IMG/VR virus record: IMGVR_UViG_3300033145_000849
Span: 64,267-128,266 of that record
Strand: one strand, 5' to 3'
Source: a virus
DNA length: 64,000 nucleotides
Shown here in pieces: positions 3,699 through 64,000 of the stretch (positions within the stretch are counted from its first letter, which is position 1; the number at the start of each line of letters is the position of its first letter). Below the pieces are notes generated by a model that ran no database searches, was not told the DNA's origin, and saw only the letters and a program-made list of their open reading frames with translations. Position numbers and translations under genes: made by a program.

Positions 3699-3727
3699 AA
3701 GCAACAAACCTCCGTGAAATTATTAGG

Positions 3728-33650: not shown

Positions 33651-36600
33651 CTAGAACTTTCTTCTCTTAGGAGCTGAGGGTCTTCTGGGGCTCATTCCTA
33701 TCCGTTTTCTAGCATCATTTGATGCCTGTTGCATACTTCTAGACTTGGGTCTTGGAGCATCATGTCCAAATCCTGGCCAGTTCCATATCTTAACCCCAGC
33801 CTCTTTGTTTGTATGAGCTGCAGGCAGATCTGGCTTCGAAATAGTGTTTACATTAGCAAAATCAGCCCTTCCAGATTGAGGCTTATGAGATTCTGCTGAT
33901 ATATGCTTTCCAGTGTCACCATCTATCAATCCTATACCTGGTGAATAGGCAATAGTATTATCATACTTAGGTTTGCCAAATGGTGTCTTTTCTAAAGTGA
34001 AAGCCACTAATGCTAAGTTAACAGCATCTAGAACATGGTCTCCTACTCTTGTATTCTCTTGTTCATATACTGGCATTCCGGCCATTGTCATACGCTTAAC
34101 AATATATCCTAAAAGAGCAGAAGTAAACTTATCATCTGACTTGGGATACTTAATAGTACAGGTTTCGAACCTTCTTACAGAGTTTTCAACTAAGAAAGGT
34201 TTCGCCGGTTTCTTAACGAGCTCTTTCGTAAACAAATCGTGGGTTTCTATTGTTCCACCAAAGTCATAAGCTTTAACTATTCTGGAAAGCTTAGAGTCTG
34301 GATGAGACTTGCCTTTAGTTGCTATGGAGTCAAATCCAAACTTTCTTAAGACTTCATATTGTGTAGCTCCAAAACCTCTATCTATGTAGATTGTGAAAGG
34401 ATTCCAGAGTCGGTTATACTCTGCAACTTTTTCACAAGCAGCCAATTGGGTATAGTCACCCCTACTAACAATCTGTTTATCTACAAGATAGAAAAGACCA
34501 TTTGCTGGATCGTAACCTACTACAACAATAGTTACGCCTACCTTTCTATCGTTCCAATCTACACCCATACTATAGTGCCAATTTGGATTAACGGTTTGTT
34601 CACTATACTTGTACTCTGATTGTGCAATCTCAACATACTTAGCTTGATAAACGCCTTCTTCTTGCTCACCAAACTGAGCTAGAACCTCATGTTTATAACC
34701 ATCTTCTGTAAGCTGTTCATGGAAAAAGTCTTCAAGCTCATCACTCCAGTTTGGATTGATTTGTGAAGGATAATGAAACTCCTTGAATATTCTAGAATTA
34801 CAAGTGGTATAGAAATGTTCTCTCTTACCAGTTGGAGTTGAAGACATCCAAACAGTAGCCTTAGGATGGTTTGTAATGATAGCAGACGCGGCATTTACAT
34901 CATCAGCACAAAGCATATCTGCCTCATCAAAGATCAACATACTAGCATCCTGACCTCTTACGGACCCAGCACCTTGTCCTGATCTAGTACCAGCAGTAAA
35001 ACCTCTAACCCTAGAACCATTAGCTAATTCCATAGCATAGTTAGGTGCCTTTACATTTCTAGTAACAGAAGCACTAAGCAAAGGATTGCCTTGAATCATA
35101 CCTTGAAGTCTAGAGAATATTAACTCGATTTGAGATTGGAATGGAGCTATCACAACTACTTTAAACTTAGAATGAGTAAACATACCATGTAGCATAGCTA
35201 TACATAATGCTTCGGTTTTTCCCGAGTTATGGGTTAGGATTCCATTGGCAATAAAATTATGATTATTTTTAACTTCAATATCATATGTTTCTTGTTCTCC
35301 AAGATATTCTATCTTTGAGACATAGTCCCATAAAATATCTTTTTCTGTCTTGCCATATTTATCTCCAGTGCTATCTGTTATTTTCATTGCAACAGAACAT
35401 GCCGTCTCTTTCCCTTTTACAGGTCCAATATTGTTAAGAAAATTTATTACCCCGTTTTTGTTAGAAACGACATATCTGTAACCACAATCTTCTTGTTTGA
35501 TATATCCATGAACACCAAATCTCCATAATAGACGTTGGATATCTTGAACTAATAGTTTATTTTCTTGGAGAACACCAATTTCGGTCCTATAGGTTTCTCT
35601 ACCTGTACGTTTAAATGAAGAGACATATCCATCTGCAGACCATAATCGATTCATAAAAGCAGCAATTTGTTCTTTGGGCGCTTCAAATATAGCTTTTGGA
35701 ACTCTCTTATCTGGACCACGAATATCTCCTAGTCCATGCTTAAATATAATTTCTCTTACAGGATTGGGTTGTCGGCGGCCATTAGAAATAATCAGATCAA
35801 AACCATTACCTTTTGGATAAGGTTTTACCTCGGAACCAAAAGATTTACATAAACTAGTAAATTCGTTTAAATATTCTTCAGTAATATTAGTAAACTTGGC
35901 CGATTGTTTAGGAGCACAGCTTCCATCAGCGATAAAATAGCCTAATAGTTCAGGTAATCCCAAGGGCAATGGTTTCGTACCAAAAACTGGTTCTACAATT
36001 GGAACTGCTATCTTATGTCCTACCTGTAGTCCAGAGCTAATAGTTGACCAATGACGAGGTAGTTTCTCTATGGTATATCCATTTTTATAATCACAGAAAC
36101 GGCTAATAGACAGGAATGGATGATTATTAGTACATTCAATTTCGTGTCCAAATTTTGTCCTAATTCTATAAACTGGCTTAGATCCACTGGACCAAGAATC
36201 AACAACAGTATCAGATTCTAATTTATAAGTACTTGTATTAACAGAGAAAAGACTGTCTCCAGCTCGAACTTCTTTGATTGATACCACTTTGCCACTAGTA
36301 AGTTGGACTAAAGTATTTTCAGTTAGGCACTGTCTACCCAATCTGAAGGCTTTACGCTTACTAGAACATCTTAACATTTGGGCTTGATAAGGTCTGTGGA
36401 AAGGAGCCTTTCCCATCTTTGCCACTTCTTCATCATATGGATTAGATTCTTCAGGTAAGGAACCATCGTCTGTCATTCGTTTCCAAACTGCACCTTCTGG
36501 ATCAAGACAGTGCCAGTCTAAAAATTCTGCTGCCCATGTAACTGGATCTAACATAGATATAGCGATCTCGGGATCGCCACCTACACTAGCTAAAATATCA

Positions 36601-36731
36601 TCTGAAAGATATGCTTCTGGGATACCAAAACAAGGAACTCTAAAGTTGTCTCCTCTTTTAAGATTGTGTTTCTTAACATAACCTTTTACACAGTCTTTAC
36701 AGATCCCATCACATTGCCTAAGGTCTATCAA
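33651..36731 (-). CDS. terL: Terminase large subunit (intein-containing)
   Basis: After splicing: Walker A GRQSGKT, Walker B LIFDEAD, SSTPTG, nuclease MGVDWN and DHVLDA. Confidence 0.93.
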   Translation of the reverse strand: MIDLRQCDGICKDCVKGYVKKHNLKRGDNFRVPCFGIPEAYLSDDILASVGGDPEIAISMLDPVTWAAEFLDWHCLDPEGAVWKRMTDDGSLPEESNPYDEEVAKMGKAPFHRPYQAQMLRCSSKRKAFRLGRQCLTENTLVQLTSGKVVSIKEVRAGDSLFSVNTSTYKLESDTVVDSWSSGSKPVYRIRTKFGHEIECTNNHPFLSISRFCDYKNGYTIEKLPRHWSTISSGLQVGHKIAVPIVEPVFGTKPLPLGLPELLGYFIADGSCAPKQSAKFTNITEEYLNEFTSLCKSFGSEVKPYPKGNGFDLIISNGRRQPNPVREIIFKHGLGDIRGPDKRVPKAIFEAPKEQIAAFMNRLWSADGYVSSFKRTGRETYRTEIGVLQENKLLVQDIQRLLWRFGVHGYIKQEDCGYRYVVSNKNGVINFLNNIGPVKGKETACSVAMKITDSTGDKYGKTEKDILWDYVSKIEYLGEQETYDIEVKNNHNFIANGILTHNSGKTEALCIAMLHGMFTHSKFKVVVIAPFQSQIELIFSRLQGMIQGNPLLSASVTRNVKAPNYAMELANGSRVRGFTAGTRSGQGAGSVRGQDASMLIFDEADMLCADDVNAASAIITNHPKATVWMSSTPTGKREHFYTTCNSRIFKEFHYPSQINPNWSDELEDFFHEQLTEDGYKHEVLAQFGEQEEGVYQAKYVEIAQSEYKYSEQTVNPNWHYSMGVDWNDRKVGVTIVVVGYDPANGLFYLVDKQIVSRGDYTQLAACEKVAEYNRLWNPFTIYIDRGFGATQYEVLRKFGFDSIATKGKSHPDSKLSRIVKAYDFGGTIETHDLFTKELVKKPAKPFLVENSVRRFETCTIKYPKSDDKFTSALLGYIVKRMTMAGMPVYEQENTRVGDHVLDAVNLALVAFTLEKTPFGKPKYDNTIAYSPGIGLIDGDTGKHISAESHKPQSGRADFANVNTISKPDLPAAHTNKEAGVKIWNWPGFGHDAPRPKSRSMQQASNDARKRIGMSPRRPSAPKRRKF
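35226..36329 (-). mobile_element. Intein with LAGLIDADG endonuclease in the TerL Walker A motif
   Basis: LGRQ|CLTENT...CTNNHPF...LGYFIADG...LWSADG...TYDIEV...ANGILTHN|SGKT; 368 aa. Confidence 0.95.
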
Positions 36732-40648: not shown

Positions 40649-42415
40649 CTACTCCTCTTTACCATCGATTAAATCATCTGGAGTTAAGGGTTGTACTACT
40701 TCTGCATCTATTATATCACTCTCTGCATGTCTCAGTTTCTTAAGTTCAACTTCTGCTTGTCTAGTAAGAAGCATTATCTTATTACGAAGTTCTGCTGCAG
40801 AGTTTGAAGGATCGTCATTACCTCTTTGTTTAAGCGCTGCTTCTCTTTTGTATTTTTCTTGTCTGTCCCCAACCATTAGCTTAACTAATTTGGTTTTTCT
40901 ATTGTTTAAGCGCTCTTTAGTGTCAAAAAAGGCGTTTGTTTCCATTTTTGTAAGAATAGTACCGTCTTTATCTACCCCAACTATGCTTTCTTGTACTAAT
41001 TCAGCATGTTTTGGTTTAGAAAGGTTGTTATTTAGTCTCCATAACATCAATTCTATCTCAGCTAGCTCTCGTACCATTTGTATTTCAGTGAATGAACTCT
41101 CATCTATATGATAGTCGTGAATATACAATCGGGTATATTCGTTCAATAAGTTTACTTCTATAAGACAATTATGAGTAACAATTCCATTGGCCAAATAGGT
41201 ATGATGATTATCAACCTCAAGACTATAGACTATGCCATCATAATCATATCGTTCAATTTCGATAGGTTCCTTATTTGGAACTTTTTCGCCATGTTTCCTT
41301 CTCTTCATCTCGGGACCATCAATAGTAGCAACATCCATACAACCGGAGATAAGATTACAAGCCCTTATCTTTAATAATCTGCTCATAGATCCTAGCATGG
41401 AGTTAAAATCAGACTTTCTGCTCCAAATTGGATAATCAATAGATAACCCGATCTCTTTAAGTTTCTGTGTAATAAATTGACTACCAGGAGAATTTCTCCT
41501 ATGATGTTCGTCTAATTGTTCCTGGGTAACCCACTTATACAAACCGTTCCATTTAACCTTCTTTGTCCCATCTGAAACAGCAATAAAACATGTTTTGGTA
41601 GTTCTAAATCTCAGAGAAAGCTCTTCTTCTGCTAACATCGCCTCTGTATTTGTATTGTAAAGACCCAATATCCAAATATCGTCAGCTTGCTCTCTTTGAG
41701 CTCTTGAAGTTATTCCAGAATACCTTTTGCTTTTGGTTTCTTTAAACAATACTGTTTTTCCTATCCTCCAGCTGTCTCCTCTTCTCATTAAATATACAGC
41801 AAATTTATTAAAAGCATTTTTGTTCCACCTTGCCATGCAAATGTGATCAACAGTACAATCATAGTGTCCATAGAGAGTCTTAATCCGGACCATTTGACCC
41901 TTATAGTCTCTACTTCCCAATTGAAAATGTGCCCCACCTCGAGAAGAATGTTCATAGCTAGAAATATAACTACTTTTACTATGAAATACAGCCACTTTGT
42001 CTTCTCCAACTTTTAGTTCTTCAATAGGAACCTGGCCTTGATTAACTGTCTGGATGAGGGTTCCTGGGGGATGACAAGCTCTACCTATTGGAGTTTTCTT
42101 CATTTTTACAAATAGACATTGAGGAGCGAAAGGACATTTTGCTCCTCCACCACAAGTTAAGGGTATCGCCGCACTTGCTCCTGTCGATAGATGAGTCAGA
42201 TGACTCTTGATTTTGTTGGCTTCTTCACGAGTAAACTCAATATCTGAATAATCATCCGGAATCAATTCCAAGAACTCGAAGAAATTGGTCTTATATTCTT
42301 TACCATCATTCTTGATAATGGTTCCATTCAACTTAATGAGATCTGTACTTTCCTTTTTAGGTTCAGCCAAAACAAAACTCCTGTTGTCCTGGAATATAGT
42401 GCGGCGCTTGCTCAA
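40649..42415 (-). CDS. Cys4 protein with intein (possible terminase small subunit)
   Basis: Spliced product has C..CPF..C...GRAC Zn-type motif and a helical C-terminus. The TerS call is positional inference only. Confidence 0.5.
   Translation of the reverse strand: MSKRRTIFQDNRSFVLAEPKKESTDLIKLNGTIIKNDGKEYKTNFFEFLELIPDDYSDIEFTREEANKIKSHLTHLSTGASAAIPLTCGGGAKCPFAPQCLFVKMKKTPIGRACHPPGTLIQTVNQGQVPIEELKVGEDKVAVFHSKSSYISSYEHSSRGGAHFQLGSRDYKGQMVRIKTLYGHYDCTVDHICMARWNKNAFNKFAVYLMRRGDSWRIGKTVLFKETKSKRYSGITSRAQREQADDIWILGLYNTNTEAMLAEEELSLRFRTTKTCFIAVSDGTKKVKWNGLYKWVTQEQLDEHHRRNSPGSQFITQKLKEIGLSIDYPIWSRKSDFNSMLGSMSRLLKIRACNLISGCMDVATIDGPEMKRRKHGEKVPNKEPIEIERYDYDGIVYSLEVDNHHTYLANGIVTHNCLIEVNLLNEYTRLYIHDYHIDESSFTEIQMVRELAEIELMLWRLNNNLSKPKHAELVQESIVGVDKDGTILTKMETNAFFDTKERLNNRKTKLVKLMVGDRQEKYKREAALKQRGNDDPSNSAAELRNKIMLLTRQAEVELKKLRHAESDIIDAEVVQPLTPDDLIDGKEE
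41168..42076 (-). mobile_element. Intein with GIY-YIG-like insert
   Basis: IGRA|CHPPGT...CTVDH...VYSLEV...ANGIVTHN|CLIE; 303 aa; insert AVYLMRRGDSWRIGKT...R...EAMLAEE. Confidence 0.85.
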
Positions 42416-42862: not shown

Positions 42863-45130
42863 CTATAACTTTCCACCATGTGTCCATTTATACCCATCTA
42901 CAGCTACTTCTAGTAGAGCTACATCGGTATTGCTACCACCATCGTCATCTAATTCAAATCTAACAAACACTTGGTCCCCTTCATAATAGTCTGATATATC
43001 AAATGGTTCAAACTCTACACTAATAATCTTGTCTGCTACTGACAAATCAACGTCACTAACAGCAACAACTTGTGCATTCTTTGCTACTACTGTCTCTGTA
43101 TTAGCTACTGTTCTTGCAATTGGAGTATGATTTGCCCCTCCTGTAGGATCTGCCACTTTTACTCCAGCAATCTGAACTGGAAGGAGAGACATAATGAAGT
43201 CAACATTAGCCCCCGGATTGCCTGTAGGCAATACTTTAGCATACATATGCATAGGGAAGGAAGTGTCAATTCCATATGGAAGAGTAAATTGAAAATGCAC
43301 AGCATCGCCATTGGTATTTAAGTTACTATTCTTGATATTGTGGTCCCACTGAGTAGGTGCTCCACCGGCTCCAACAGTATGAGTAACGTCGCCGACTGCT
43401 CCTTCTTCTCCAAAGATGTTACCTGCTGCTAGTACAGTGTGCTCGAATCTGGAATTTCCATGATAAGTATCTGTACCATCTGCATTTTTCTCAGATCTAC
43501 TAGTAGACAGTTTAAACTGTTGAAAAACCGGGGAAGTTGTAACTGTTGTAGCAATTCTTATCCTTGCCCAGTATAAATTCTTACTGTCAATAGTCTTCTG
43601 AACCCATGTTGTACCACCATCGACACCAAATCGGATATGTTCAGAAATATTGGATCTAATAAACAACTCATTGCCATACCTGTGAAACAAACTACTGTGA
43701 GTAGCCATTGTTCCAACTTCAGTCCATGCTGCACCAGTCCAAATCTCAATTGCATATGATTTTGGTGCAACTTCAGTAGTGGCTGTAGTTTGCAATACTT
43801 TAATGCCATAAAATTTAAGATTACCAGAAACTACGTTGATTCTGTTTGAACCGAATAGAATACTATGGCCGTCAGTTACTCCTTGAAAAGAGAAAGTAGA
43901 TGCAGATGCAGATTGAGCAGATGTAGAAACATCTGTTAAATTACCACCATCTGCTGCAGCTCCTGCAGTGCTATCTGTGGTGATAACGACCATGTCCTTA
44001 GTGTAGGAGTCCCCTTCACCGAAAACGGCCTCACGGCCCAACTCAGGGCTTCCTACGGCTAATTCTAGAGAGGTTACTACTGCTGGATCCCCTTCTTTCA
44101 TGTCTATATGATTAGTCCTAATTCCATCCCAATCTAAAACACTAAAATGATCGGACCTCATCTTGCTTCCAACAAGTTCTAGAATACCAGAAGCAAATTC
44201 CTGTTCTAAATGATTTGCAACACCATCTTCAACAATTACTCCTGCTCCATGTATGTTTCCTCCACTGCCCACTTTTAGACCTGTTGTAACGTCTTCTTCT
44301 ATTGTTATAGACATTAGATCTAAGTGGCCACCATCTTCTGCATATAGTCCTGTGGTCCCTTCTGAAGCTAAAGAGTTAGAGACAGTCATATTGGAACCTG
44401 AGTGTACACAATGATATCCTGTCGTTGATGTGCTAAAAATATTCGCAGAAACAATTGTACCTTGCTCAAAAGACTTCTGGCCAGTACCTGTTGGGGCGAA
44501 ATATTTAGATTCTTTAACAAATAGGCGGGAATCTAATCCACTTGCTGCTACACCTGTTTCTCCAACTGTAAACTGGCAGTTAGTTACTTCTGCATCTACA
44601 CCAGAAGCTGGAAGAACACAGATGGCACTAGTAGGTCCAACAATATTAAATCCTGCTAATGTAGCTCTGGCGTCAAGAGTGATAAAGTCATAGTCATTGT
44701 CAGTAGTAATAAGAACAGCAACGGATTGTCCACCAACCACAGTGTATGAAGGTATGGTAAATGGCTGTTCTATATATGTGCCTGGACTTACATCTATATA
44801 ATAGGGTTTTGCAGCACTAGAATCAGTAATTGAGTCACAAGCAGTTTTAATGCTGTTAAAGTCTGCAGCGGCTGTAGGGCCTACATTTAAATATTCTGGA
44901 CTTATTGAAGAAGAAGCTCCATCAATAACAATTACTCCATCAGATGTGGAAAGATGGGCATTTGTTCCATCATGATACATTTCCAGGTATATTGAATTAT
45001 TCCCTGGTGACAATAATTGGAGTTTATCCTCTACTTGTACAGTGTCTCCTGTATCACAAGATCTAAATGGCCCAGAGAAAGAATCTCCATCACTAACATT
45101 TGTCTTTACTGCTATTTTTCTTTTACCCAT
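42863..45130 (-). CDS. Tail spike/fibre-like protein with beta-helix (pectin-lyase-like) region
   Basis: ADFNSIKTACDSI...YIDVSPGTYIE beta-helix cap followed by Gly/Ser/Thr-rich strands. Confidence 0.6.
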   Translation of the reverse strand: MGKRKIAVKTNVSDGDSFSGPFRSCDTGDTVQVEDKLQLLSPGNNSIYLEMYHDGTNAHLSTSDGVIVIDGASSSISPEYLNVGPTAAADFNSIKTACDSITDSSAAKPYYIDVSPGTYIEQPFTIPSYTVVGGQSVAVLITTDNDYDFITLDARATLAGFNIVGPTSAICVLPASGVDAEVTNCQFTVGETGVAASGLDSRLFVKESKYFAPTGTGQKSFEQGTIVSANIFSTSTTGYHCVHSGSNMTVSNSLASEGTTGLYAEDGGHLDLMSITIEEDVTTGLKVGSGGNIHGAGVIVEDGVANHLEQEFASGILELVGSKMRSDHFSVLDWDGIRTNHIDMKEGDPAVVTSLELAVGSPELGREAVFGEGDSYTKDMVVITTDSTAGAAADGGNLTDVSTSAQSASASTFSFQGVTDGHSILFGSNRINVVSGNLKFYGIKVLQTTATTEVAPKSYAIEIWTGAAWTEVGTMATHSSLFHRYGNELFIRSNISEHIRFGVDGGTTWVQKTIDSKNLYWARIRIATTVTTSPVFQQFKLSTSRSEKNADGTDTYHGNSRFEHTVLAAGNIFGEEGAVGDVTHTVGAGGAPTQWDHNIKNSNLNTNGDAVHFQFTLPYGIDTSFPMHMYAKVLPTGNPGANVDFIMSLLPVQIAGVKVADPTGGANHTPIARTVANTETVVAKNAQVVAVSDVDLSVADKIISVEFEPFDISDYYEGDQVFVRFELDDDGGSNTDVALLEVAVDGYKWTHGGKL

Positions 45131-45286
45131 AGTTTGTCCCTTCCTAATCAGTGTGAAACGTCCTGACTATTGGTTTATTTTATTATGTAAAGCGTTAGCT
45201 CTCGCTAGGATTTCTAATGAAACATTATCCTTAAAAAGAAAGGTTTCGCCGTTTTTGTGTATCTGGGGTCTCTCTGTGTCTGTATA

Positions 45287-45295
45287 AGAATAGCA
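45287..45295 (-). promoter_or_regulatory. Candidate extended -10 promoter TGcTATTCT heading the structural arm
   Basis: Intergenic, upstream of 45130. Confidence 0.3.
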
Positions 45296-45396
45296 TAGTG
45301 GAAGGATATTTCGAGGGAAGGGGGAAAAAGGGGTAATGGGGCCGATTTCAAGTTAAATTATATATGAGAAATGGTGATATAGCTGAAATCTGTTTT

Positions 45397-45780
45397 TTAA
45401 GAAGTAGACCAAGTCCGTATTCTATGACAGTTAGAGCAAACAACTTCACATTTAGCAATTTCATCTAGAATCTGTTGAACAGGATAATCTTGACTTACCA
45501 TCTGTGAAACATTCGCCACTTTCTGTGCTGGATCAATATGATCGAAATCCATTACATAAAAAGGATACTCATTTTTACAATCAGCACATGGCTTATTCTT
45601 AGCTTCTCGTATTACTTGTTGGCGAGTCTGACGAGTTTGCCTTCTGTGTTCCTTCCTGTAAGAACTCTTACATTGTTTACAAAGTGAATATAGGCCGTCT
45701 TTAGACGAAGGATTAGCATAGAAATATTCAGATGTACGAGGATAGGATTCACCACATTCATTACAAGTTTTTGGGTCCAT
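45397..45780 (-). CDS. HNH endonuclease
   Basis: CNEC...CKQC, CADC...DFDHID...EIAKCEVVCSNCHRIRT. Confidence 0.85.
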   Translation of the reverse strand: MDPKTCNECGESYPRTSEYFYANPSSKDGLYSLCKQCKSSYRKEHRRQTRQTRQQVIREAKNKPCADCKNEYPFYVMDFDHIDPAQKVANVSQMVSQDYPVQQILDEIAKCEVVCSNCHRIRTWSTS

Positions 45781-45969
45781 TCAAATACTGTACCCATTAA
45801 TAAGGCTAAAATCAATATATTTTATGAAGGTCCTTATGAATATATACACATATAGAGACTCCTTATTCCTAAAGGGGACCCATTGCGGGACTCCTACATT
45901 TTACCAATAAGTCCCATGTTCTGAATGGTCAGGTATGGGTCACATGAACCATTAACAAGGAGAGATGAT

Positions 45970-46245
45970 ATGAGCCTGTGGAATACGATCAAAGACGGAT
46001 TCAATAGTGGATACAATAGTGGTGTGGCTAATGATGTTAAGACATGTCTTCCTGGTACGAAGGCAGAGGCCGTTTTCCATGGTGGTGTGGGTACTACCGC
46101 TGTGGTAGTAGCTGCCTGGTCTGTACCTGAGACTGTTGGGTTCTGGGCAGTGCAGGCAGCAATATGGCCGACTGCGTTGATGGCTGTGGTGGCGAGTGTG
46201 GTGGTGGTTGGTGGTGTTAAGTACTACCTTATCAAGAAGAGTTAG
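45970..46245 (+). CDS. Small membrane protein, first gene of the plus-strand arm
   Basis: AAGGAGAG RBS before MSLWNT; two hydrophobic segments. Confidence 0.6.
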   Translation: MSLWNTIKDGFNSGYNSGVANDVKTCLPGTKAEAVFHGGVGTTAVVVAAWSVPETVGFWAVQAAIWPTALMAVVASVVVVGGVKYYLIKKS

Positions 46246-46257
46246 TGCTGGTGTAGT

Positions 46258-46352
46258 CCCCTCTCAGGAGGGGGCTTACCTATAGCTACAACTATGTGTT
46301 GTGGTTATAGGTGAGCAGTGGTGTGTTATGTGTATGGCCCCCGTAAGGGGGC
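46258..46352 (+). ncRNA. Cluster of RNA hairpins (candidate structured RNA or processing site)
   Basis: 19-bp stem with G-U pairs at 46274-46316; gccccc-GTAA-gggggc GNRA hairpin at 46337-46352. Confidence 0.35.
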
Positions 46353-46834
46353 GTAGTAGTGAGGTGTTAGCTATAGTGACAGGTTGTACTAGCAGTAGGT
46401 GCTTGTGTCCATAAGATAGAAGGATTGGGCCGGCGTATGGTACAGAGCCGGGCGTATATTCCCTTCCCTTACGGTACTAGACATAGTTGTACTACAAGTA
46501 CCCCAATTATGCTAAAAGCCATTCTCACCCGACAAGACCTTATTGTAAGGCATTCTAGCAATAGGGATGTACAGGTATATAGGGGTGCTGAGACAGGGGA
46601 AGGGGATGTGGCTAGTGCTACTGGTATGTCCTGTATAGGCATACTTCTGGTAAGTAGCTGAATTAATACTAGTTAAACTAAGTTAACCTATAAGTATAGG
46701 GGGATGGTCTTCTATGCTAGGTAACAGTGTACTGTGTATACCGTAAAAGAAAGGTAATGGGTGTGTAGGTAAGGTAAGATAGGCCGTTTTTGTAGTGATT
46801 AACTGTCCCTGTATAGGGATAACAGGAGAAAGAC

Positions 46835-47044
46835 ATGGCAACGTTTAAGTTGGAAGTACCGGCAAGGTATGCAGAAGATTTTAATATCAATGTAGTAGCA
46901 CCTGTGTTGGTGCATAGTCTCACTTGTGAGAGTGAGCCGGTTGTTGTTGATGAGGATGCTCTGTTGTGGGAGTTCTTGGCCGATTTGGACATGGGTGAGT
47001 TGGAGAGAGTGGTAGAGAGACATTTTGTTGAACTGTGTAAGTAA
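46835..47044 (+). CDS. Hypothetical acidic protein
   Basis: AGGAG RBS; 69 aa. Confidence 0.6.
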   Translation: MATFKLEVPARYAEDFNINVVAPVLVHSLTCESEPVVVDEDALLWEFLADLDMGELERVVERHFVELCK

Positions 47045-47066
47045 ACAATTTAACCAGGAGGATACG

Positions 47067-47921
47067 ATGATAGGTAATTATGCAGACATGACGGTTGTGA
47101 TGGATGATATGGACGCCGATTTGATGATGGCATGTCCAGGTATACTAAACGATAAAATGCTGGCAGAGGTCCTGTGGGAGCTTCTGATGGGGCATGGACC
47201 ACAGGTTGTGGAAGAGGAAGAGTATAAGGACTGTATGCCGGTAGTTAAGTATGGTTTGGTAGAGAAGCGAGACTGGGAAGTAGAGAAGCGAATTTCTATC
47301 TTTGTTGAAGGCTTACATGGGATGCCTGAAAGGAAGTATATGTGGGTAGATGGGGCATGTGTGTCACAGCCGTATTTCACACGGAGTGGGGATAGGCCGG
47401 TTTGTCTACCAGAAGCAGAGACTAATGACCTTAAGCGTAGTGTAGGTGGGTGGAGTGATATATGGGCGTCTTCTATCGTTAGTGAACGTGAGCCTGGATT
47501 CACAGATGAACAGGTTAAAGAGATCTATGGCAACTATAGGGTGGTAGTTGATTGGGTCGCAAAACATAAAGATGACAAGCAGTTACTTAGACGTGGATGG
47601 GGAGCTTTCTGGAAGCGTATCTATAAGGAGAAGGCTGCAGGTACTAAGCATCTGTATATGTGGCAGAAGCATATCAATGCAGTTAAAGAGTGCTTTGGTC
47701 AGTATGGTATAGCTGCTAGGAAGAAAGTAGCACGCGCCAACCCGAGCTCTTGTGCTTCGCTCCCTTCGGTCGCTCAAAGTAAAGCCAACCCGAGCTCTTG
47801 TGCTTCGCTCCCTTCGGTCGCTCAAAGTAAAGCCAACCCGAGCTCTTGTGGCTCGGTTTCCCCTCGAAGCAACAGCGCCAACCCGAACGTCGGAGCCTCG
47901 CTCCCTTCGGTCGCTCGTTGA
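47067..47921 (+). CDS. Hypothetical protein, paralog of 52645-53337; C-terminus runs into the tandem repeat
   Basis: AGGAGG RBS before MIGNY; shared SxPYFTxxGxRPV motif. Confidence 0.6.
   Translation: MIGNYADMTVVMDDMDADLMMACPGILNDKMLAEVLWELLMGHGPQVVEEEEYKDCMPVVKYGLVEKRDWEVEKRISIFVEGLHGMPERKYMWVDGACVSQPYFTRSGDRPVCLPEAETNDLKRSVGGWSDIWASSIVSEREPGFTDEQVKEIYGNYRVVVDWVAKHKDDKQLLRRGWGAFWKRIYKEKAAGTKHLYMWQKHINAVKECFGQYGIAARKKVARANPSSCASLPSVAQSKANPSSCASLPSVAQSKANPSSCGSVSPRSNSANPNVGASLPSVAR
47736..47917. repeat. 48-bp tandem repeat (2 exact and 2 degenerate units)
   Basis: gccaacccgagctcttgtgcttcgctcccttcggtcgctcaaagtaaa at 47736 and 47784; partial units at 47832 and 47877. Confidence 0.95.
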
Positions 47922-48183
47922 GGAAGCAATTCTCTTGCCATATCGTTCACTTCGTTCACTTAATGTCATTCGAATTGCAATTAACAGCAATACTCATGCC
48001 AGCATAGCTGGCATTTGTATTGCAGAATCATTGTTCTTCCATACATACCTGGTATGACAAGTTTGACAGAGAGAGATGGGAGAGGGTAGTCATTTGATTA
48101 GCTGCTTTGCAGCCTTGCCTCTTCTTCTAGTGTAATTATTGTTTTATAGTTTAGGGTATTTACCCTAAGGGAGGAAATGAAAG

Positions 48184-48390
48184 ATGCCGAAAGATATGAA
48201 AGAAGGATTCAACGATCCTGATGGTTGGGGTATGAAGACAGAATACAATGCTGGAAGCAAAGAACTTACTTTCTTTGTAATTGATTCTAGTGGTGATGAT
48301 TCAGGTTGTGTATCTCTCAATCTTGACCAAGTAAATGCACTCAAACATTTCCTTATGAAAATAGAAGAAATGTATAAAGAGGAGGAGTAG
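48184..48390 (+). CDS. Hypothetical early protein
   Basis: GGAGG RBS; packed operon. Confidence 0.6.
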   Translation: MPKDMKEGFNDPDGWGMKTEYNAGSKELTFFVIDSSGDDSGCVSLNLDQVNALKHFLMKIEEMYKEEE

Positions 48391-48612
48391 ATGAATAATG
48401 AAGTCCCTAGAGGAAGTGATACATATAAGCCGAGCTGTGATAGTGACCCTATCAGAGTCTATCATGATGAGGACAAAGAAAACCTACAAGGAGATGGATA
48501 TGATGGTCCTGGATGGTATTTCTGGGATGAGATGTGGGGAGAACTACATGGGCCATTTGGGACATTAGAAGAATGTAAACAAATACTTAATGCCTATGCT
48601 AGTAACTTGTAG
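48391..48612 (+). CDS. Hypothetical phage protein (GWYFWDE..W...GPF motif)
   Basis: GGAGGAG RBS. Confidence 0.65.
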   Translation: MNNEVPRGSDTYKPSCDSDPIRVYHDEDKENLQGDGYDGPGWYFWDEMWGELHGPFGTLEECKQILNAYASNL

Positions 48613-48621
48613 GAGAATAAT

Positions 48622-48852
48622 ATGACGTTTAAGTCTAAGTCTGAAGCTATGATGTCTATCCTTAAAGGGTTGAGTGGTAGGATAGATACGGCCGCGCTGA
48701 ACATTAGTAATGTAACTATGACTGTACAAGAAGGCTTCGTGGTTGATGGTCTTGTCCATGCAACAGGAAAGTATATGTATGTACAGCTATCTAATCGTAA
48801 AGTACTAGTGGATAGTTATACTATTCCATTCGACTTGGAAGAGGAGAGCTAA
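48622..48852 (+). CDS. Hypothetical protein
   Basis: AGGAG RBS. Confidence 0.6.
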   Translation: MTFKSKSEAMMSILKGLSGRIDTAALNISNVTMTVQEGFVVDGLVHATGKYMYVQLSNRKVLVDSYTIPFDLEEES

Positions 48853-48956
48853 ATGGAAATTATTATGGGTATCTTGTTCGCAATTCTTGTTGTTAGAGCA
48901 ATAGATAGAGAAATCTTCTCGAAGAAAGAAGATAAACCTCAACCAAAGGATAAGAA

Positions 48957-49361
48957 ATGAAACTACATAAGTATGTGACGTATAAGGCTATTACGTATTT
49001 ATATCAAGTAGTAGGCGGATTTATACAAGGCTTTGTTGGTGACAGTTATAAGAATAGGCATTTTAAAATCATGGGCGAAGTACTGTGTAGTAAAGAATGT
49101 CATGCAGCAGTTAAGAAAGTGATGGAGGAGTCATACGTTTTAGGTATTACACCTCATCGCTTTAGAGTAAATGCTGCAGCAAATAAAGAATTTGCTAATA
49201 AGCTCATTGCTCTAGCTGAAGCTAGAGAGAAAGAAATGGGCGATCCTGTCGAGCAAGTTCTACAATCAATTAAGGACGAGTTAGCACAACGTAGAGACCG
49301 CGCAAATCTTCATGTAGTTAAAGGTATGCATGGTAGACCTCATAAACCTTATCCTAACTAG
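48957..49361 (+). CDS. Hypothetical protein
   Basis: 134-aa ORF with AAGGA RBS. Confidence 0.6.
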   Translation: MKLHKYVTYKAITYLYQVVGGFIQGFVGDSYKNRHFKIMGEVLCSKECHAAVKKVMEESYVLGITPHRFRVNAAANKEFANKLIALAEAREKEMGDPVEQVLQSIKDELAQRRDRANLHVVKGMHGRPHKPYPN

Positions 49362-49466
49362 CTAAATCTTAGCTCTTATAGCTTAAATCCTTGCTTAATG
49401 GTTAATATCTTAGTCGTTAAGGTTAATAATGATCAGTATATTCACCATTGTACAAAGGAGGATGTG

Positions 49467-49742
49467 ATGAAAGAGCCTAAAGCTGAACAGTATACGGTCG
49501 ATAGATATGTCATGAACGTAGAACATGCCCGTCAGTGGCTAGATTCACGCGAAATGACTATGGAAAGGGTGATGAATACCGATTCATTTGTCATCTGTTA
49601 TGGGGATGGCAATGCAATAGGATTGAGTCGGCCGTCTCCTCTCATTCCCTTTACTCTTAATCTTTATATTGATGAAGACAGAGTAATGGAAGTTGATATT
49701 GAAAGTATGACTCAGGAGGATAGAGATGCACTCCCTTTTTAA
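49467..49742 (+). CDS. Hypothetical protein
   Basis: Start moved to ATG behind AGGAGG. Confidence 0.55.
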   Translation: MKEPKAEQYTVDRYVMNVEHARQWLDSREMTMERVMNTDSFVICYGDGNAIGLSRPSPLIPFTLNLYIDEDRVMEVDIESMTQEDRDALPF

Positions 49743-50016
49743 ATATAAAGTAGGTGACACAGTCATTGTACGTTCTAACGAAGATCAACCTTATTGGGTA
49801 GGTTCAGTGCTTCATGAAGACTCATTTCCTACACGAGGTGATAAGATCCCATTGGTTATTAGACATAGTGATCAAAAAGAATTTATGGTCATGGGCATGG
49901 TAGTGCAACATGACATGGTTCTTGTTGCTGAATTGGAAAAACGCAGTCCCAAAGAACAATGGGACTATCTCAAACATCTCAAGTATGGAGACAAAGCCGA
50001 CCAATACATTGGTTGA
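49726..50016 (+). CDS. Small SH3/KOW-like protein
   Basis: FKYKVGDTVIV N-terminal motif. Confidence 0.5.
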   Translation: MHSLFKYKVGDTVIVRSNEDQPYWVGSVLHEDSFPTRGDKIPLVIRHSDQKEFMVMGMVVQHDMVLVAELEKRSPKEQWDYLKHLKYGDKADQYIG

Positions 50017-50027
50017 GGAGGAATACA

Positions 50028-50612
50028 ATGACAACTAAAGATACAAAAACGATTACTGTTAAACAACTTGAAGAAAATCTTGTAGTTATCAATGAAGATA
50101 TTGCTAGCTATAACAAGATGAGAAAAGCTATCAAACAACATATTAAAGACATGAAGAGAAATAAGCTTGATGATTTTAAGCTTGGTGTCTTTAAAAGGTT
50201 TGAAGAAGCAGCAGATGATCTCAAGTATAAGAGAGACAATCCTATTGGATATCGCCATGATATCATTATTCAAGCTGCTGATAAGAAAATTACGCGATTA
50301 GAGAAGAAAATCGAATCAAAGAAAGGTTTGAGTAATAAAGAGAATACATTCTTGCATGAAACAACTAGTAAACTCAATAGGATTGAGGAGCTGGAACAGG
50401 CTAAGAATGTTAAAGCAGTTCCAGCGTTGTTGAGTCGTCTTGCCGTCTTGATAGACATAGCAAACGAACAACTTAAAAAGACAGAGAAAGAGGAAGAAGA
50501 ACTTCACGACGATCCTGGCATGAAGTTGATGAAAGATTTAATCATAAGCATTCCTGGGATGCAAAAAGAGCTAGATCCAGAGATCCTTGAAGCATTGAAA
50601 GGAGCTAAGTAA
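50028..50612 (+). CDS. Coiled-coil hypothetical protein
   Basis: GAGGAGG RBS before MTTKDT. Confidence 0.6.
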   Translation: MTTKDTKTITVKQLEENLVVINEDIASYNKMRKAIKQHIKDMKRNKLDDFKLGVFKRFEEAADDLKYKRDNPIGYRHDIIIQAADKKITRLEKKIESKKGLSNKENTFLHETTSKLNRIEELEQAKNVKAVPALLSRLAVLIDIANEQLKKTEKEEEELHDDPGMKLMKDLIISIPGMQKELDPEILEALKGAK

Positions 50613-50989
50613 TGGTTGTTAATGGTCTGAGTCTAGCAATTCTAACAGGAGCAGCATTTTATTTTATCTTCAATAAGCTGCCTAAAAGAATGCGGCGATT
50701 CATGCAAAGACATATGCTACTCACTGATGCAGTAGCATGCTTGTTAACTTACATGCTCTTTGGAGGTACTCTTGTAGCTCTATTCGCAGCTGCCTGGCTA
50801 GGTCTGATCATTAGTGTTATGTTGACTCTTCTTAATAATAAGAAGATCAGTAAAGCAATTGAGCGCCTTGCTAGTAAGCTTACTCAACTCAAAGAAGCTA
50901 GCTTCGATTGGGTAGAGAAAGTTGCTACACCAGCAGACGAAGAGCTTCCAAGCAATGTTACTCCAATTCGAGAGAAAGAAGCTGCATAA
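50612..50989 (+). CDS. Membrane protein
   Basis: Two to three hydrophobic segments. Confidence 0.65.
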   Translation: MVVNGLSLAILTGAAFYFIFNKLPKRMRRFMQRHMLLTDAVACLLTYMLFGGTLVALFAAAWLGLIISVMLTLLNNKKISKAIERLASKLTQLKEASFDWVEKVATPADEELPSNVTPIREKEAA

Positions 50990-52644: not shown

Positions 52645-53337
52645 ATGATGTTCAATAAACTTATCAATGTAAAAGAGTTGTTGGAAGCAAAACTTGGCTT
52701 TGTCATTCGTGATGAAGACAGTGATGGCCTTAAGTTTACGGACCCAGCAGAAATGAGCTTGGAGGAACTTGAAGAAACAAAAGACTATACTGATAGAGTA
52801 TTAGGACTTAGAGCTCAAAAATGTCCAGACTTTCAAATAGAAAGGACATTTACCACAACTAGATATGCATACGAAGCAGATAAGCATGGCTTCCCTAAGT
52901 CTGTATGCATCCGAGAAAAGATTACTGATGACAATACTCAGATATCAGACCCTTACTTCACTACCACAGGCAACAGGCCGGTTATTAAAGGGTTTGCTGA
53001 ACTCAGAGACATGTGTCGCTCGAAGGGTGGATTCAGTGATCTAGAGATACCTGAAGAGAACAACCTAGACAAACTATGTAATGACATAGTATGGAACGAT
53101 AGAAAGGAACAGAAGGCGCGGAGAGCTCAGTTAACGGCTAAGATCCAGCGGGTTATTGCACGAATGGATAATCTTGGTAAAGTATATGGCTTTGCTAAAC
53201 GTTTTAGGACAGCACTCAAGACATCCAGGAACAAGTGTTCCGAAACAGGATGGGACAGTGTTCTGGTTGATAAAGGCCAAGCTAAGCAGATTAAAGATGC
53301 TATTGAAGATAAGATTGCGAGGATAAAACGTCTATGA
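52645..53337 (+). CDS. Hypothetical protein, paralog of 47067-47921
   Basis: AGGAGG RBS; SDPYFTTTGNRPV. Confidence 0.65.
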   Translation: MMFNKLINVKELLEAKLGFVIRDEDSDGLKFTDPAEMSLEELEETKDYTDRVLGLRAQKCPDFQIERTFTTTRYAYEADKHGFPKSVCIREKITDDNTQISDPYFTTTGNRPVIKGFAELRDMCRSKGGFSDLEIPEENNLDKLCNDIVWNDRKEQKARRAQLTAKIQRVIARMDNLGKVYGFAKRFRTALKTSRNKCSETGWDSVLVDKGQAKQIKDAIEDKIARIKRL

Positions 53338-54276: not shown

Positions 54277-54351
54277 GGCGCATTAGCCCAATTGGCACGA
54301 GGCGTCTGGTTTAGGGCCAGAATGTTCTAGGTTCAAATCCTAGATGCGCTA
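54277..54351 (+). tRNA. tRNA-Leu(UAG), short variable loop, no encoded CCA
   Basis: Acceptor ggcgcat/atgcgct; anticodon arm tctgg-ttTAGgg-ccaga; T arm ctagg-ttcaaat-cctag; A73. Confidence 0.8.
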
Positions 54352-54364
54352 CTAGGAGAACAAC

Positions 54365-54556
54365 ATGATTGCTTTAGGTCTTACATCACTAATCATTCTA
54401 CTGATTTGTGAAGTTGCAATGATTATCAGTATAGTTGTTGGTTGTAATGAATTAGATACTCCACTCAGAAGCGGGGTCTTCCTCTTTTGGTGTATCTTAA
54501 CTGCATTAATTAACATTCCAACTGTCTATATATACATGGTATTGTCTAATTTGTAG
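54365..54556 (+). CDS. Small two-TM membrane protein between tRNAs
   Basis: AGGAG RBS; hydrophobic. Confidence 0.55.
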   Translation: MIALGLTSLIILLICEVAMIISIVVGCNELDTPLRSGVFLFWCILTALINIPTVYIYMVLSNL

Positions 54557-54559
54557 TAA

Positions 54560-54633
54560 GGTCCCATATTCCAACAGGCAGAGAAACAGCGTTTAAAACG
54601 CTGCCAGTGCTGGTTCGACTCCAGCTGGGACTA
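54560..54633 (+). tRNA. tRNA-Leu(UAA), short variable loop, no encoded CCA
   Basis: Acceptor ggtccca/tgggact; cagcg-ttTAAaa-cgctg; gctgg-ttcgact-ccagc; A73. Confidence 0.8.
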
Positions 54634-54636
54634 TAT

Positions 54637-54708
54637 GGGTCACGCTCAGGGTAAGCTCGTTGGGCTCCAAACCTGACTGGATGCGGGGTTCAATTCCTCG
54701 GTGGCCCG
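54637..54708 (+). tRNA. tRNA-Trp(CCA), atypical D arm
   Basis: Acceptor gggtcac/gtggccc; ttggg-ctCCAaa-cctga; cgggg-ttcaatt-cctcg; G73. Confidence 0.65.
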
Positions 54709-54723
54709 CAGAGGAAAAGAAAG

Positions 54724-54930
54724 ATGACAGTTGAACAGCTTCATAAAATAACTGGTCAGTTAATTAAAGAGGGACATGGATTAGCGCCAGTATTATTTGA
54801 TACTGAAGCTCAAACTTATCACTATCATATGGCAAGTATAGATGAAGTATTCTTTGAAGAAGAACCATATCCACATTGTGGACTTCATGAAAATATTCCA
54901 CATCATACTTGTACTAAAAAGTGTGAATAA
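54724..54930 (+). CDS. Hypothetical protein
   Basis: MTVEQL..L start typical of small phage proteins. Confidence 0.55.
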   Translation: MTVEQLHKITGQLIKEGHGLAPVLFDTEAQTYHYHMASIDEVFFEEEPYPHCGLHENIPHHTCTKKCE

Positions 54931-54944
54931 GTATTCGGTTTATT

Positions 54945-55016
54945 GCTGGTGTAGCTCAGTTGGTAGAGCAGTTGATTTGTAATCAGCAGTTACGGGTTCA
55001 AGTCCTGTTACCAGCT
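54945..55016 (+). tRNA. tRNA-Thr(UGU)
   Basis: gctggtg-tagctcagttggtagagc-a-gttga-ttTGTaa-tcagc...ggttcaagtcc...taccagc. Confidence 0.9.
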
Positions 55017-55030
55017 CAAGGGAGAAATAG

Positions 55031-61118: not shown

Positions 61119-61754
61119 ATGAAAATAAATAAAACTAGAGCACTTACAAACAAGCAGGTATTACTAATTCCTGAGATGATTAAACAGAAATTGGGTTCTC
61201 GAGAAATTTATACAAAATTAGGTATAAGCCAACCTGTATATAATAGAATTTTAAGTGGTATAACTTATAAAGATTTACAAGAAAAATTACAACCTAAACT
61301 TAAAGAGGTACGAGAGAGTTTACTACCACCACCTGGAATGAAAAAATGTACCAAATGTGGAAGAATTTTACCATTTGATGATCATTTTTTTCAACCATTA
61401 GATAAAAAGAAGAGACCTCTAGGATTCGAATCTCGATGTTTAGTTTGTAAGAAAGAAGAGAATAAAAAAAGACACAATGATCTAAAAATGGCTGCATTAA
61501 AGTACTATAGTATAAATGAGATGCCAGAATGCGAGTGTTGTGGAGAAACTATTATTGAGTTTCTTACTATAGACCATATTGATGGTAATGGTGGGGAACA
61601 TAGAAGAACAGAACTTAAAGGAAAATATTCTTCTATTGGTTTATGGCTAAAGGATAATGGATATCCTAAAGGATTCCGAGTACTTTGCATGAATTGTAAT
61701 TGGTCTATGGGAGTACATGGATATTGTCCTCATCATGGGATGAGAAATGGCTGA
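61119..61754 (+). CDS. HNH-type homing endonuclease with N-terminal HTH
   Basis: CECCGE...LTIDHIDGNG...RVLCMNCN...GYCPH; HTH-like IYTKLGISQPVYNRIL. Confidence 0.8.
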   Translation: MKINKTRALTNKQVLLIPEMIKQKLGSREIYTKLGISQPVYNRILSGITYKDLQEKLQPKLKEVRESLLPPPGMKKCTKCGRILPFDDHFFQPLDKKKRPLGFESRCLVCKKEENKKRHNDLKMAALKYYSINEMPECECCGETIIEFLTIDHIDGNGGEHRRTELKGKYSSIGLWLKDNGYPKGFRVLCMNCNWSMGVHGYCPHHGMRNG

Positions 61755-63388: not shown

Positions 63389-64000
63389 ATGGCTCCTAGG
63401 AAGAAGATTCCTAAAGGAACTAGATTTGGGAAATTAGTAGTAATTAACTATTATGGACCTCACTTAAGTGATAATGAGAGTACTACATTATGTCAATGTG
63501 ATTGTGGTAATACATCTATTGTTAGAAATAATGATCTAAAGAAAAATAAAGGAACTCGTTCCTGTGGATGTATGCAAGGATGTTCTCATGGATATGCTAG
63601 AGCTAGAAGCTCATCCACCTACCATAGCTGGCAATCTATGGTAACACGGTGCACAAATCCAAAGGCAACAACTTATTATAAATATGGAGCCAGAGGAATA
63701 AAGATATGCAATAGATGGATAGAATCATTCGAGAATTTCTTAAAAGATATGGAAGAAAGACCTGAAGGCACCACAATAGATAGAATAGATAATGATGGAG
63801 ACTATATTCCAGAGAACTGTAGATGGGCAACTAATGAAGAGCAAGCCTGGAACAAGAGAGATACTATCTATCTAACAGTCAATGAAGAAACCCATAATCT
63901 AAACGAATGGTCTAAGATAACTGGGATCAAGTATCATACTCTTAAATCCCGAGTTGGAAGAGGATTTACTCCAGAACAAGTAATCTATCCTAAGAGATTA
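63389..64000 (+). CDS. HNH homing endonuclease (3'-truncated; not in ORF track)
   Basis: GTRFGKLVV...CQCDCGN...SCGC...SWQSMVTRC...YGARGI..C.RW..SFENFLKDM...TIDRIDNDGDY.PENCRWAT. Confidence 0.88.
   Translation, partial: MAPRKKIPKGTRFGKLVVINYYGPHLSDNESTTLCQCDCGNTSIVRNNDLKKNKGTRSCGCMQGCSHGYARARSSSTYHSWQSMVTRCTNPKATTYYKYGARGIKICNRWIESFENFLKDMEERPEGTTIDRIDNDGDYIPENCRWATNEEQAWNKRDTIYLTVNEETHNLNEWSKITGIKYHTLKSRVGRGFTPEQVIYPKRL

Follow-up and report, generated by a model that had tools for sequence, protein, structure and literature searches.

Hairpin sites and repeat array at the late-early junction

The stretch analysed here (the window) covers 64,000 nucleotides, positions 64,267 to 128,266, of the IMG/VR virus record IMGVR_UViG_3300033145_000849, and the subject of this report is a group of four short candidate DNA hairpins on its minus strand, between 47759 and 47959, where the late and early genes of a large phage meet. 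The whole contig of 128,266 bases was estimated to be 54% complete and had no terminal overlap. About 108 kb of it carry genes on the minus strand, including those for sheath, portal, capsid protein and terminase (the late block), and small plus-strand genes run from 45925 to the contig end (the early block). The capsid protein was 33-37% identical to those of Bacillus phage 0305phi8-36, Acinetobacter phage ME3 and Moorella phage MTATph1, and no close DNA relative was matched among cultured phages. By its genes the phage belongs with the sheathed myoviruses, as a relative of Bacillus phage 0305phi8-36, and is not crAss-like.

A gene of the early block (47067-47921, plus strand, 284 amino acids), with an ATG at 47067 and AGGAGG ahead of it, consists of a body (47067-47735) and a read-through tail (47736-47921). 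Its final 62 codons are a GC-rich array without strand assignment (47736-47924), made of four units at 47736-47783, 47784-47831, 47832-47876 and 47877-47924. Every unit begins with GCCAACCCGA(G/A)C, the boxes being spaced 48, 48 and 45 bp, and this box was found nowhere else in the contig with up to 2 mismatches allowed. Tandem- and direct-repeat finders reported a 48-bp tandem repeat with 2.4 perfect copies at 47736-47850, units 1 and 2 being 100% identical, and a fourth unit 73% identical. No other 200 bases of the contig are as rich in G+C as the array (59.5% vs 39.4%). Further downstream lie a terminator-like hairpin on the plus strand, ATGCCAGC-ATA-GCTGGCAT then TTGTATTGCA (47996-48024, stem-loop 47996-48014; -8.3 kcal/mol, z -4.2), and the first dense cluster of small early-block genes (48184-50989, plus strand), as given by the list of open reading frames (ORFs) and the strand map.

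An earlier note on this DNA, made from the letters alone, had described three identical 15-mers and one variant on the minus strand, and all four were re-found in the contig at the coordinates it gave. Hairpin 1 (47759-47773) reads GC-GA-CC-GAA-GG-GA-GC, that is GCGACCGAAGGGAGC; hairpin 2 (47807-47821) is an identical repeat copy, and hairpin 3 (47900-47914) has the same sequence again within the diverged fourth unit. Hairpin 4 (47945-47959) reads GT-GA-AC-GAA-GT-GA-AC, that is GTGAACGAAGTGAAC, and the stop codon of the 47067 gene stands 24 nt before it. Each site can be drawn with a GAA loop, closed by C-G, on two inner pairs, followed outwards by a tandem G.A/A.G step and two outer pairs; at the same positions the plus strand would present T.C/C.T mismatches and a TTC loop. 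By reading, hairpin 1 can be extended to 47755-47777 through a second GA/GA step with T-A and T.G pairs, and hairpin 2 likewise has a second GA/GA step. Hairpin 3 would compete with a perfect GGAGC-GAG-GCTCC hairpin at the same place. Hairpin 4 lies within a 9-bp tandem duplication (47943-47961); read directly against the first type, it agrees at 13 of 18 positions. Two compensating pair changes account for four of the five differences, as the variant had been described, and the fifth falls outside the 15-mer. The heptamer GCGAAGC, also noted earlier as occurring twice, was re-found on the minus strand of the array at 47754 and 47802, with one further copy elsewhere in the contig.

A scan for the hairpin design, proposed in the earlier note, was carried out on both strands of the 128,266-base contig with the strict pattern NN-GA-NN-GNA-NN-GA-NN, in which the Ns are complementary. 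There were five matches, compared with an average of 0.28 and never more than 3 in 100 dinucleotide shuffles; four of the five were clustered, all four on the minus strand, and in 47700-48183 these four compared with a mean of 0.003 in 1000 shuffles. The fifth match, TAGATAGAATAGATA, an A+T-rich plus-strand sequence at 63777 within a short tandem repeat, looks like chance. When one deviation was allowed, no family members were added (16 matches in the contig vs 9.6 +/- 2.8 expected). Because three of the hairpin copies belong to one 48-bp tandem array, they are not independent: units 1 and 2 are identical and the third copy stands in the 73% unit, so that the sites amount to two distinct sequences, not four. 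Unit 3 carries no 15-mer; a perfect hairpin, CCGAGC / 7-nt loop / GCTCGG (47838-47856, both strands; -6.4 kcal/mol, z about -4), replaces there the degenerate version seen in units 1 and 2.

The body of the 47067 ORF had a coding signal of +0.20 in frame, compared with -0.47 to -1.17 in the other frames. Across the array tail no frame had a coding signal (-0.32 in frame) and at least three frames were open. Homologues of the 47067 protein were found by tblastn in the metagenome loci L176 and L179, in the complete relative G009 and as a paralogue at 52645-53337 of the window; among 5.8 billion proteins the protein matched only itself, and single-protein and alignment searches found no relatives in the viral collection. 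In a four-sequence alignment, the L176 and L179 homologues and the paralogue all end exactly at the array start (3/3). Since the homologues end at the array and the tail has no coding signal, the array is taken as a DNA element that happens to be read through here, and the alignment places its origin outside the ancestral gene.

Other readings of these repeats were tried and set aside. A coding tandem repeat of the protein did not agree with the three homologues stopping before the array or with the coding score of -0.32, and a CRISPR-like reading was rejected because the "spacers" are identical. As intrinsic terminators, the 15-mers do not combine a GC-rich stem with a T run, and they were not among the candidates of a terminator scan, which gave only 47996-48014 (plus) and 47856-47838 (minus). 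A promoter scan found no sigma-70-type promoter within the array, and Rfam gave nothing relevant in 45100-48400. The paralogues 47067-47735 and 52645-53337 form a small protein family; its members adjoin the early/late junction here, in L176 and in L179, and the G009 member lies 4.5-8 kb away from that junction.

Hairpin sites in related phages

Relatives were gathered with a profile of a conserved Cys-motif protein (homologue of 40649-42415), which gave 53 metagenome and 23 viral loci. Six related viral contigs (G001-G006) all end before the switch region. The closest relative was locus L179, whose phage is also represented by viral contigs G007 and G008; the capsid protein of this relative was 78% and its large terminase 58% identical to those of the present phage. 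Its switch region of 2.2 kb (3850-6041) had coding scores of -0.10 to -0.31 and reaches 63% G+C; an ORF at 4138-4740 there has a junk-like translation, and Rfam gave nothing relevant in 3700-6200.

Six hairpins of the form NN-GA-GC-G(A/T/G)A-GC-GA-NN were found in L179, all on one strand and all within 4227-5620, with none in the other ~19 kb. Four are strict matches, where shuffles gave 0.083 for the whole locus and 0.003 for its 2.2-kb region, and two contain one G.T pair. Their cores are exactly GCGAAGC, GCGTAGC or GCGGAGC. The spacings of 27, 162, 96, 405 and 685 nt make no regular array, and the outer stems vary between sites, one site having eight Watson-Crick pairs and a second outer GA/GA step. 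For the late genes the purine-rich strand is the sense strand; for the neighbouring early genes, the 47067 homologue among them, it is the template, as in the present phage. The first late-sense genes begin ~400 nt downstream of the L179 cluster.

In an alignment of 12 sites, G7, A8, C10, A13, G14, G16 and A17 were invariant, and three of the four stem pairs occurred with 3-4 pair types. All 48 of 48 cells were paired, a count that is biased because the search by which the sites were found required pairs; therefore only clustering, strand and placement count as independent evidence. The comparison identifies the putative element as a lineage-conserved, strand-asymmetric DNA mini-hairpin, kept with varied stems in the closest relative. 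It appears to belong to a weakly coding or non-coding late-early control region of uncultured large myoviruses related to 0305phi8-36.

More distant relatives were more varied. The complete genomes G009 (188.7 kb) and G010 (191.1 kb) had no strict hairpins, and each carried a single 7-bp GCGAAGC hairpin directly ahead of its first early gene, in opposite orientations. Loci L192, L195 and L196 share one zippered site and a C6-GAA-G6 hairpin in a divergent intergenic region. In phage 0305phi8-36 itself (NC_009760.1 220-260, minus; L228), the sequence ACGGC-GA-GC-AGA-GC-GA-GCCGT lies 220 nt from the physical left end, within the 6479-bp terminal repeat; it has an AGA loop and seven Watson-Crick pairs, with a weaker neighbour beside it. 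The core pattern was not enriched in the 0305phi8-36 genome (6 matches vs 5 control).

Tandem units of 46 and 59 bp were also seen at the early/late junction of other relatives (L176:1813-1916, G009:176960-177071), with GCCA and ATATTTTAC boxes; by reading, those of G009 contain sigma-70-like hexamers before the first early gene. The L176 and G009 units probably represent early promoters arranged in tandem. The contigs of many relatives stop 0.6-5.6 kb upstream of the Cys-motif gene, and that of G008 stops within the hairpin cluster, 111 nt past a hairpin; such ends could reflect a physical end of the genome, variability of tail-fibre genes or DNA that is hard to assemble.

A two-barrel polymerase-like protein

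The late block of the present phage also encodes a protein of 1537 amino acids (3728-8341, minus strand) with a predicted two-barrel RNA-polymerase-like catalytic region at residues ~780-1400 and AADTDGD at 1115-1121. The gene lies between those of two giant proteins of the myovirus tail module, and this position alone suggests that the protein might be packaged in the virion. No match was found in Pfam, PHROG, PDB sequences or, by tblastn, cultured phages, and Atlas scores of 0.82 were below the useful level. Among 40 aligned sequences, R-x-P, D-x-D-x-D, R-x-Q and K-H positions were invariant. A model of residues 780-1400 had a predicted local distance difference test score (pLDDT) of 87, and the top 50 Foldseek matches were all RNA-polymerase chains, mostly the largest catalytic subunit. 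The VIA-align Z values were 12.8 for RDR2, 12.2 for QDE-1, 11.0 for Pol I, 9.8 for P74-26 gp62, 8.3 for P23-45 gp96 and 7.2 for phi14:2 gp66. By these fold matches, the earlier designation as a double-psi beta-barrel (DPBB)-type RNA polymerase was borne out as a fold: according to the model the protein has a two-barrel RNA-polymerase fold, with catalysis predicted. It shares the fold and D-x-D-x-D with the single-chain two-barrel RNA polymerases phi14:2 gp66, P23-45 gp96, QDE-1 and RDR2, and differs in having no sequence-level match to the solved chains.

The family comprises 221 clusters at 50% identity, with members of ~1450-1550 amino acids, among them L165:2256-6785, L159:2630-7108 and L170:2083-6354. 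A limited literature search, which cannot establish absence, found no description of it in the source portions available. In G007 (94.5 kb) and G008 (67.2 kb) the gene order of the structural block is kept, including both neighbours of the polymerase-like gene. At the syntenic place these contigs retain only residues ~1383-1535, in a small ORF with the last ~155 residues (G007:35592-36077; G008:29231-29716), and the catalytic-region profile found nothing in the 94.5 kb of G007 or the 67.2 kb of G008, in a genome that is only about half assembled, so that the catalytic part could lie elsewhere. The small ORF resembles a conserved C-terminal module that lost its cargo.

The earlier note had proposed that the hairpins are promoters for this protein. 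This proposal was not supported, since the hairpin-rich relative appears without the catalytic part and the complete G009 and G010 carry the gene with no strict hairpins. A relative with hairpins and without the polymerase gene, which the note had said would favour an origin or SSB-related role, was partly found in G007/G008, given their half-assembled genome. Priming or origin signals, the other role put forward in that note, are kept as candidates. The distribution among relatives thus argues against an exclusive tie to the 1537-residue protein.

Possible roles of the hairpins

Comparable hairpins are known from a few systems. N4 early promoters carry, on the template strand, a hairpin whose 3-nt loop has a purine centre and a sheared G:A and is closed by C-G; these hairpins extrude from supercoiled DNA and resist the single-stranded-DNA-binding protein (SSB), and they have an uninterrupted stem of 5-7 bp and a conserved -17 to +1 sequence recognised by a T7-like virion polymerase (PMC4496689). 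In the N4 relative LUZ7, tandem hairpin promoters stand 33 nt apart, and the first transcribed base is a G lying 13-14 nt away from the centre of the hairpin (PMC9163698). According to a 2026 review, mini-hairpin cores occur as CCGAAGG at RSF1010 ssiA and as GCGGAGC and GCGAAGC at N4 early promoters, and also at G4-type complementary-strand origins; what these places have in common is that RNA synthesis begins on single-stranded DNA (PMC13037366). The crAss-like phi14:2 gp66 transcribes single-stranded DNA, and the available part of that report describes its early promoters as having no detectable common motif (10.1101/2020.03.07.982082).

The present sites resemble those of N4 and LUZ7 in having C-GAA-G on the early-gene template strand, upstream of early genes and in tandem copies, and in the GNA-type 3-nt loop with sheared G:A; in N4 the partner strand is unstable and melted by SSB. 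They differ from N4 in having 2 + 2 Watson-Crick pairs around the tandem G.A/A.G step and no conserved flank, and the only polymerase-like protein seen here is two-barrel and does not co-occur with the motif. The single-strand initiation (ssi) sites ssiA and ssiB of RSF1010 and the origins of G4, St-1 and alpha3 are likewise strand-specific hairpins with a mini-hairpin apex, which are SSB-resistant and mark a primer start, and RSF1010 ssiA carries CCGAAGG, the heptamer of hairpins 1-3. Those sites serve single-stranded or strand-displacement replicons with a DnaG or RepB' primase, whereas the present one is a large double-stranded phage which encodes a Toprim/DnaB-like primase-helicase and SSB and in which no Prim-Pol match was found. 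The d(GCGNAGC) mini-hairpin DNA of Hirao and co-workers matches the L179 cores exactly and is represented by the two GCGAAGC copies in the array, while the elements here add the tandem G.A/A.G clamp and the outer pairs. As far as the available portions of the literature go, G.A-clamped mini-hairpins in phage control regions were not found described in a limited search, which cannot establish absence.

Since mini-hairpin cores mark RNA starts on single-stranded DNA elsewhere, we tentatively favour, with somewhat less than even confidence, that the hairpins act as an N4-like or ssi-like single-strand initiation signal on the early-template strand, whichever enzyme reads it. The element would consist of a C-GNA-G triloop, a 2-bp stem, a tandem G.A/A.G clamp and at least two outer pairs. 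In the present phage it would have been amplified within the GC-rich 48-bp array, which directly adjoins an early gene at its end and is read through as a 62-residue tail. In an unwound or supercoiled region the purine-rich minus strand would fold and its pyrimidine-rich partner could not, and the folded hairpin would mark the start of RNA synthesis, as primer or transcript, on that strand towards the early genes. We infer that folding takes place in vivo, that the element acts at the DNA level and that it initiates RNA synthesis.

Several observations weigh against an initiation signal of this kind. The 128 kb available contain a single hairpin cluster, in a contig estimated at 54% of the genome. 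Among the loci reaching several kb upstream of the Cys-motif gene, which include L179, L185, L188, L190, L192, L195, L196, L204, L207 and L211, a hairpin cluster was found in one relative phage only. The GAA loop lies on the early-template strand in G009 and on the early-sense strand in G010, and the zippered sites of L192, L195, L196 and phage 0305phi8-36 are on the strand opposite the late genes. No flanking initiation sequence common to the sites was seen among the 10 sites compared from this phage and L179. By reading, a G at +13 from the hairpin centre was present at 3 of 3 distinct sites here and at 3 of 6 in L179, and was given little weight because of the latter count. The earlier note had placed the hairpins just ahead of the early cluster at 48184; their placement and template strand agreed with this, but the terminator-like hairpin stands between the array and the cluster, which starts ~170 nt further on. 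Primases of the Toprim/DnaB-like type are not known to need hairpins.

The calculated stability also weighs against this reading. Standard DNA energies reached no more than -1.4 kcal/mol for the minus strand, compared with -0.3 for the plus strand, and were 0 for hairpin 4, and the 256-nt region was no more stable than shuffles (z -0.06 and -0.55). Nearest-neighbour DNA energies do not model non-canonical G.A and GNA effects, and with standard energies this weak the stability must come from such effects. The strand-asymmetric design described in the earlier note was itself confirmed.

A more specific version of transcription initiation is that the two-barrel polymerase encoded among the myovirus tail proteins is injected and starts the first early transcripts at extruded, G.A-zippered template hairpins, in the manner of N4. 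Both here and in L179 the hairpins precede early genes on the template strand, their triloop geometry is N4-like and N4 uses GCGGAGC and GCGAAGC cores; the protein has the two-barrel fold with RDR2 and QDE-1 as best matches, the gp66 protein acts on single-stranded DNA with an early motif undetected in the report portion available (10.1101/2020.03.07.982082), and the three distinct sites here have the G at +13. We regard this version as unlikely, given that G007/G008 keep only the C-terminal residues with no catalytic region found by profile, that G009 and G010 carry the gene with 0 strict hairpins and G009 has by reading sigma-70-like boxes, that the terminator-like hairpin intervenes before the 48184 gene, that the start region is not conserved among sites, and that virion packaging is suggested only by gene position. 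A search with PF00940, the Pfam model of T7-like polymerases, found nothing in the contig and is uninformative, because none of the control genomes gave a match either. If the two-barrel version were true, the N4 solution would have been reached independently by an unrelated polymerase fold, the missing promoter type of injected two-barrel polymerases would be supplied, and the polymerase of the L179-like relative would be encoded in the unassembled half of its genome.

The repeats might instead work as duplex DNA, as origin iterons or as sites for a packaging/terminus factor or a regulator, the hairpin potential being secondary. The four GCCAACCCGA(G/A)C boxes, spaced at 48, 48 and 45 bp within a GC-rich island that borders a region of average G+C, would suit this, as would the GCCA-containing tandem units of 46 and 59 bp that L176 and G009 have at this junction, the contig ends upstream of the Cys-motif gene and inside the G008 cluster, and the terminal-repeat position of the 0305phi8-36 hairpin. 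We consider it distinctly unlikely, because the unpaired GA/GNA/GA bases are invariant and the paired bases vary, which is the signature of a folded single strand and not of a duplex dimer site; moreover, the L179 hairpins are irregularly spaced and the core pattern was unenriched in 0305phi8-36. Because the purine-rich strand is the late-block sense strand, the hairpins could also fold in a leftward transcript, as a leader or antisense element whose tandem sheared G.A pairs would affect stability, processing or antitermination. With RNA parameters, in which tandem G.A is scored, exactly the proposed fold was predicted, at -4.4 kcal/mol for the purine strand vs -1.9 for the complement (range -1.5 to -1.9), and at -13.3 vs -9.1 kcal/mol for the longest L179 site, the one with the second outer GA/GA step; the L179 cluster precedes the first late-sense genes, and antitermination would presumably be useful for a late block of ~108 kb on one strand. 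Such an RNA element seems quite improbable nevertheless: the leftward transcript here would run antisense through three early-block genes for ~2 kb before a minus-strand gene, no leftward promoter-like site was found at 47960-48183, Rfam had no match here or in L179, and no RNA fold was predicted for hairpin 4. Finally, the array could have no function of its own, as a recently expanded repeat, a selfish GC-rich element or a selected low-complexity protein tail. The identity of units 1 and 2 points to recent duplication, the frame is open for 62 codons, and the exact 15-mer recurs widely in the viral collection. The relative, however, keeps the design at six non-repeated sites with differing stems, and the tail shows no coding signal and is missing from each of the three homologues. 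That the array leaves at least three frames open is what GC-rich DNA would give. We therefore hold a lack of function to be highly improbable.

Hairpins on one DNA strand are used as start signals in very few systems, namely N4-like phages, plasmid ssi sites and single-stranded phage origins. Read as a single-strand initiation signal, the present hairpins would add a conserved variant with an extra G.A clamp, from the control region of little-known large uncultured myoviruses, and they give short oligonucleotide substrates that can be tested. The polymerase-like family of 221 clusters was previously unnamed. Whether the hairpins or this protein governs early expression bears on how injected two-barrel polymerases find their starts.

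The exact 15-mer was present in at least 143 stretches of the viral collection. Exact matches were rejected as evidence of kinship, as the copy in L191 encodes A-P-F-G-R in the conserved Cys motif and is coincidental. In unrelated viral contigs (L004, L005, L025, L095, L102 and L121, around 3001 or 301), the 15-mer is part of a ~90-nt conserved element with an AACCCG box 12 nt upstream and a hairpin stem that covaries between copies; in one locus it stands directly ahead of a ribosome-binding site, and it had no Rfam match. One giant-virus bin (L006-L013, L032-L036, L050-L053 and others) contains dozens of copies of a repeat with the consensus AATATTTCTACGA-[15-mer]-TCTCCGCAATATAAAAGAAA on both strands, with the same hairpin design and a longer outer stem.

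Several other features were seen in the window. The 13-mer GATAGGCCGTTTT occurs four times across the switch region on the plus strand (45689, 46064, 46778 and 47391; 85-100% alike), two of the copies lying inside a longer 21-nt match. Intein-splicing matches were found in a giant protein of 1690 amino acids (8341-13413), together with a LAGLIDADG domain, and in the Cys-motif protein (40649-42415), which has 588 amino acids here vs 262-287 in relatives. The large terminase (33651-36731) has a non-terminase N-terminal extension of ~470 residues, of the intein-like insertion class. HNH endonuclease genes are located at 45397-45780, 61119-61754 and 63389-64000, and the early block contains four tRNA genes at 54277-55017 (Leu-TAG, Leu-TAA, Trp-CCA and Thr-TGT).

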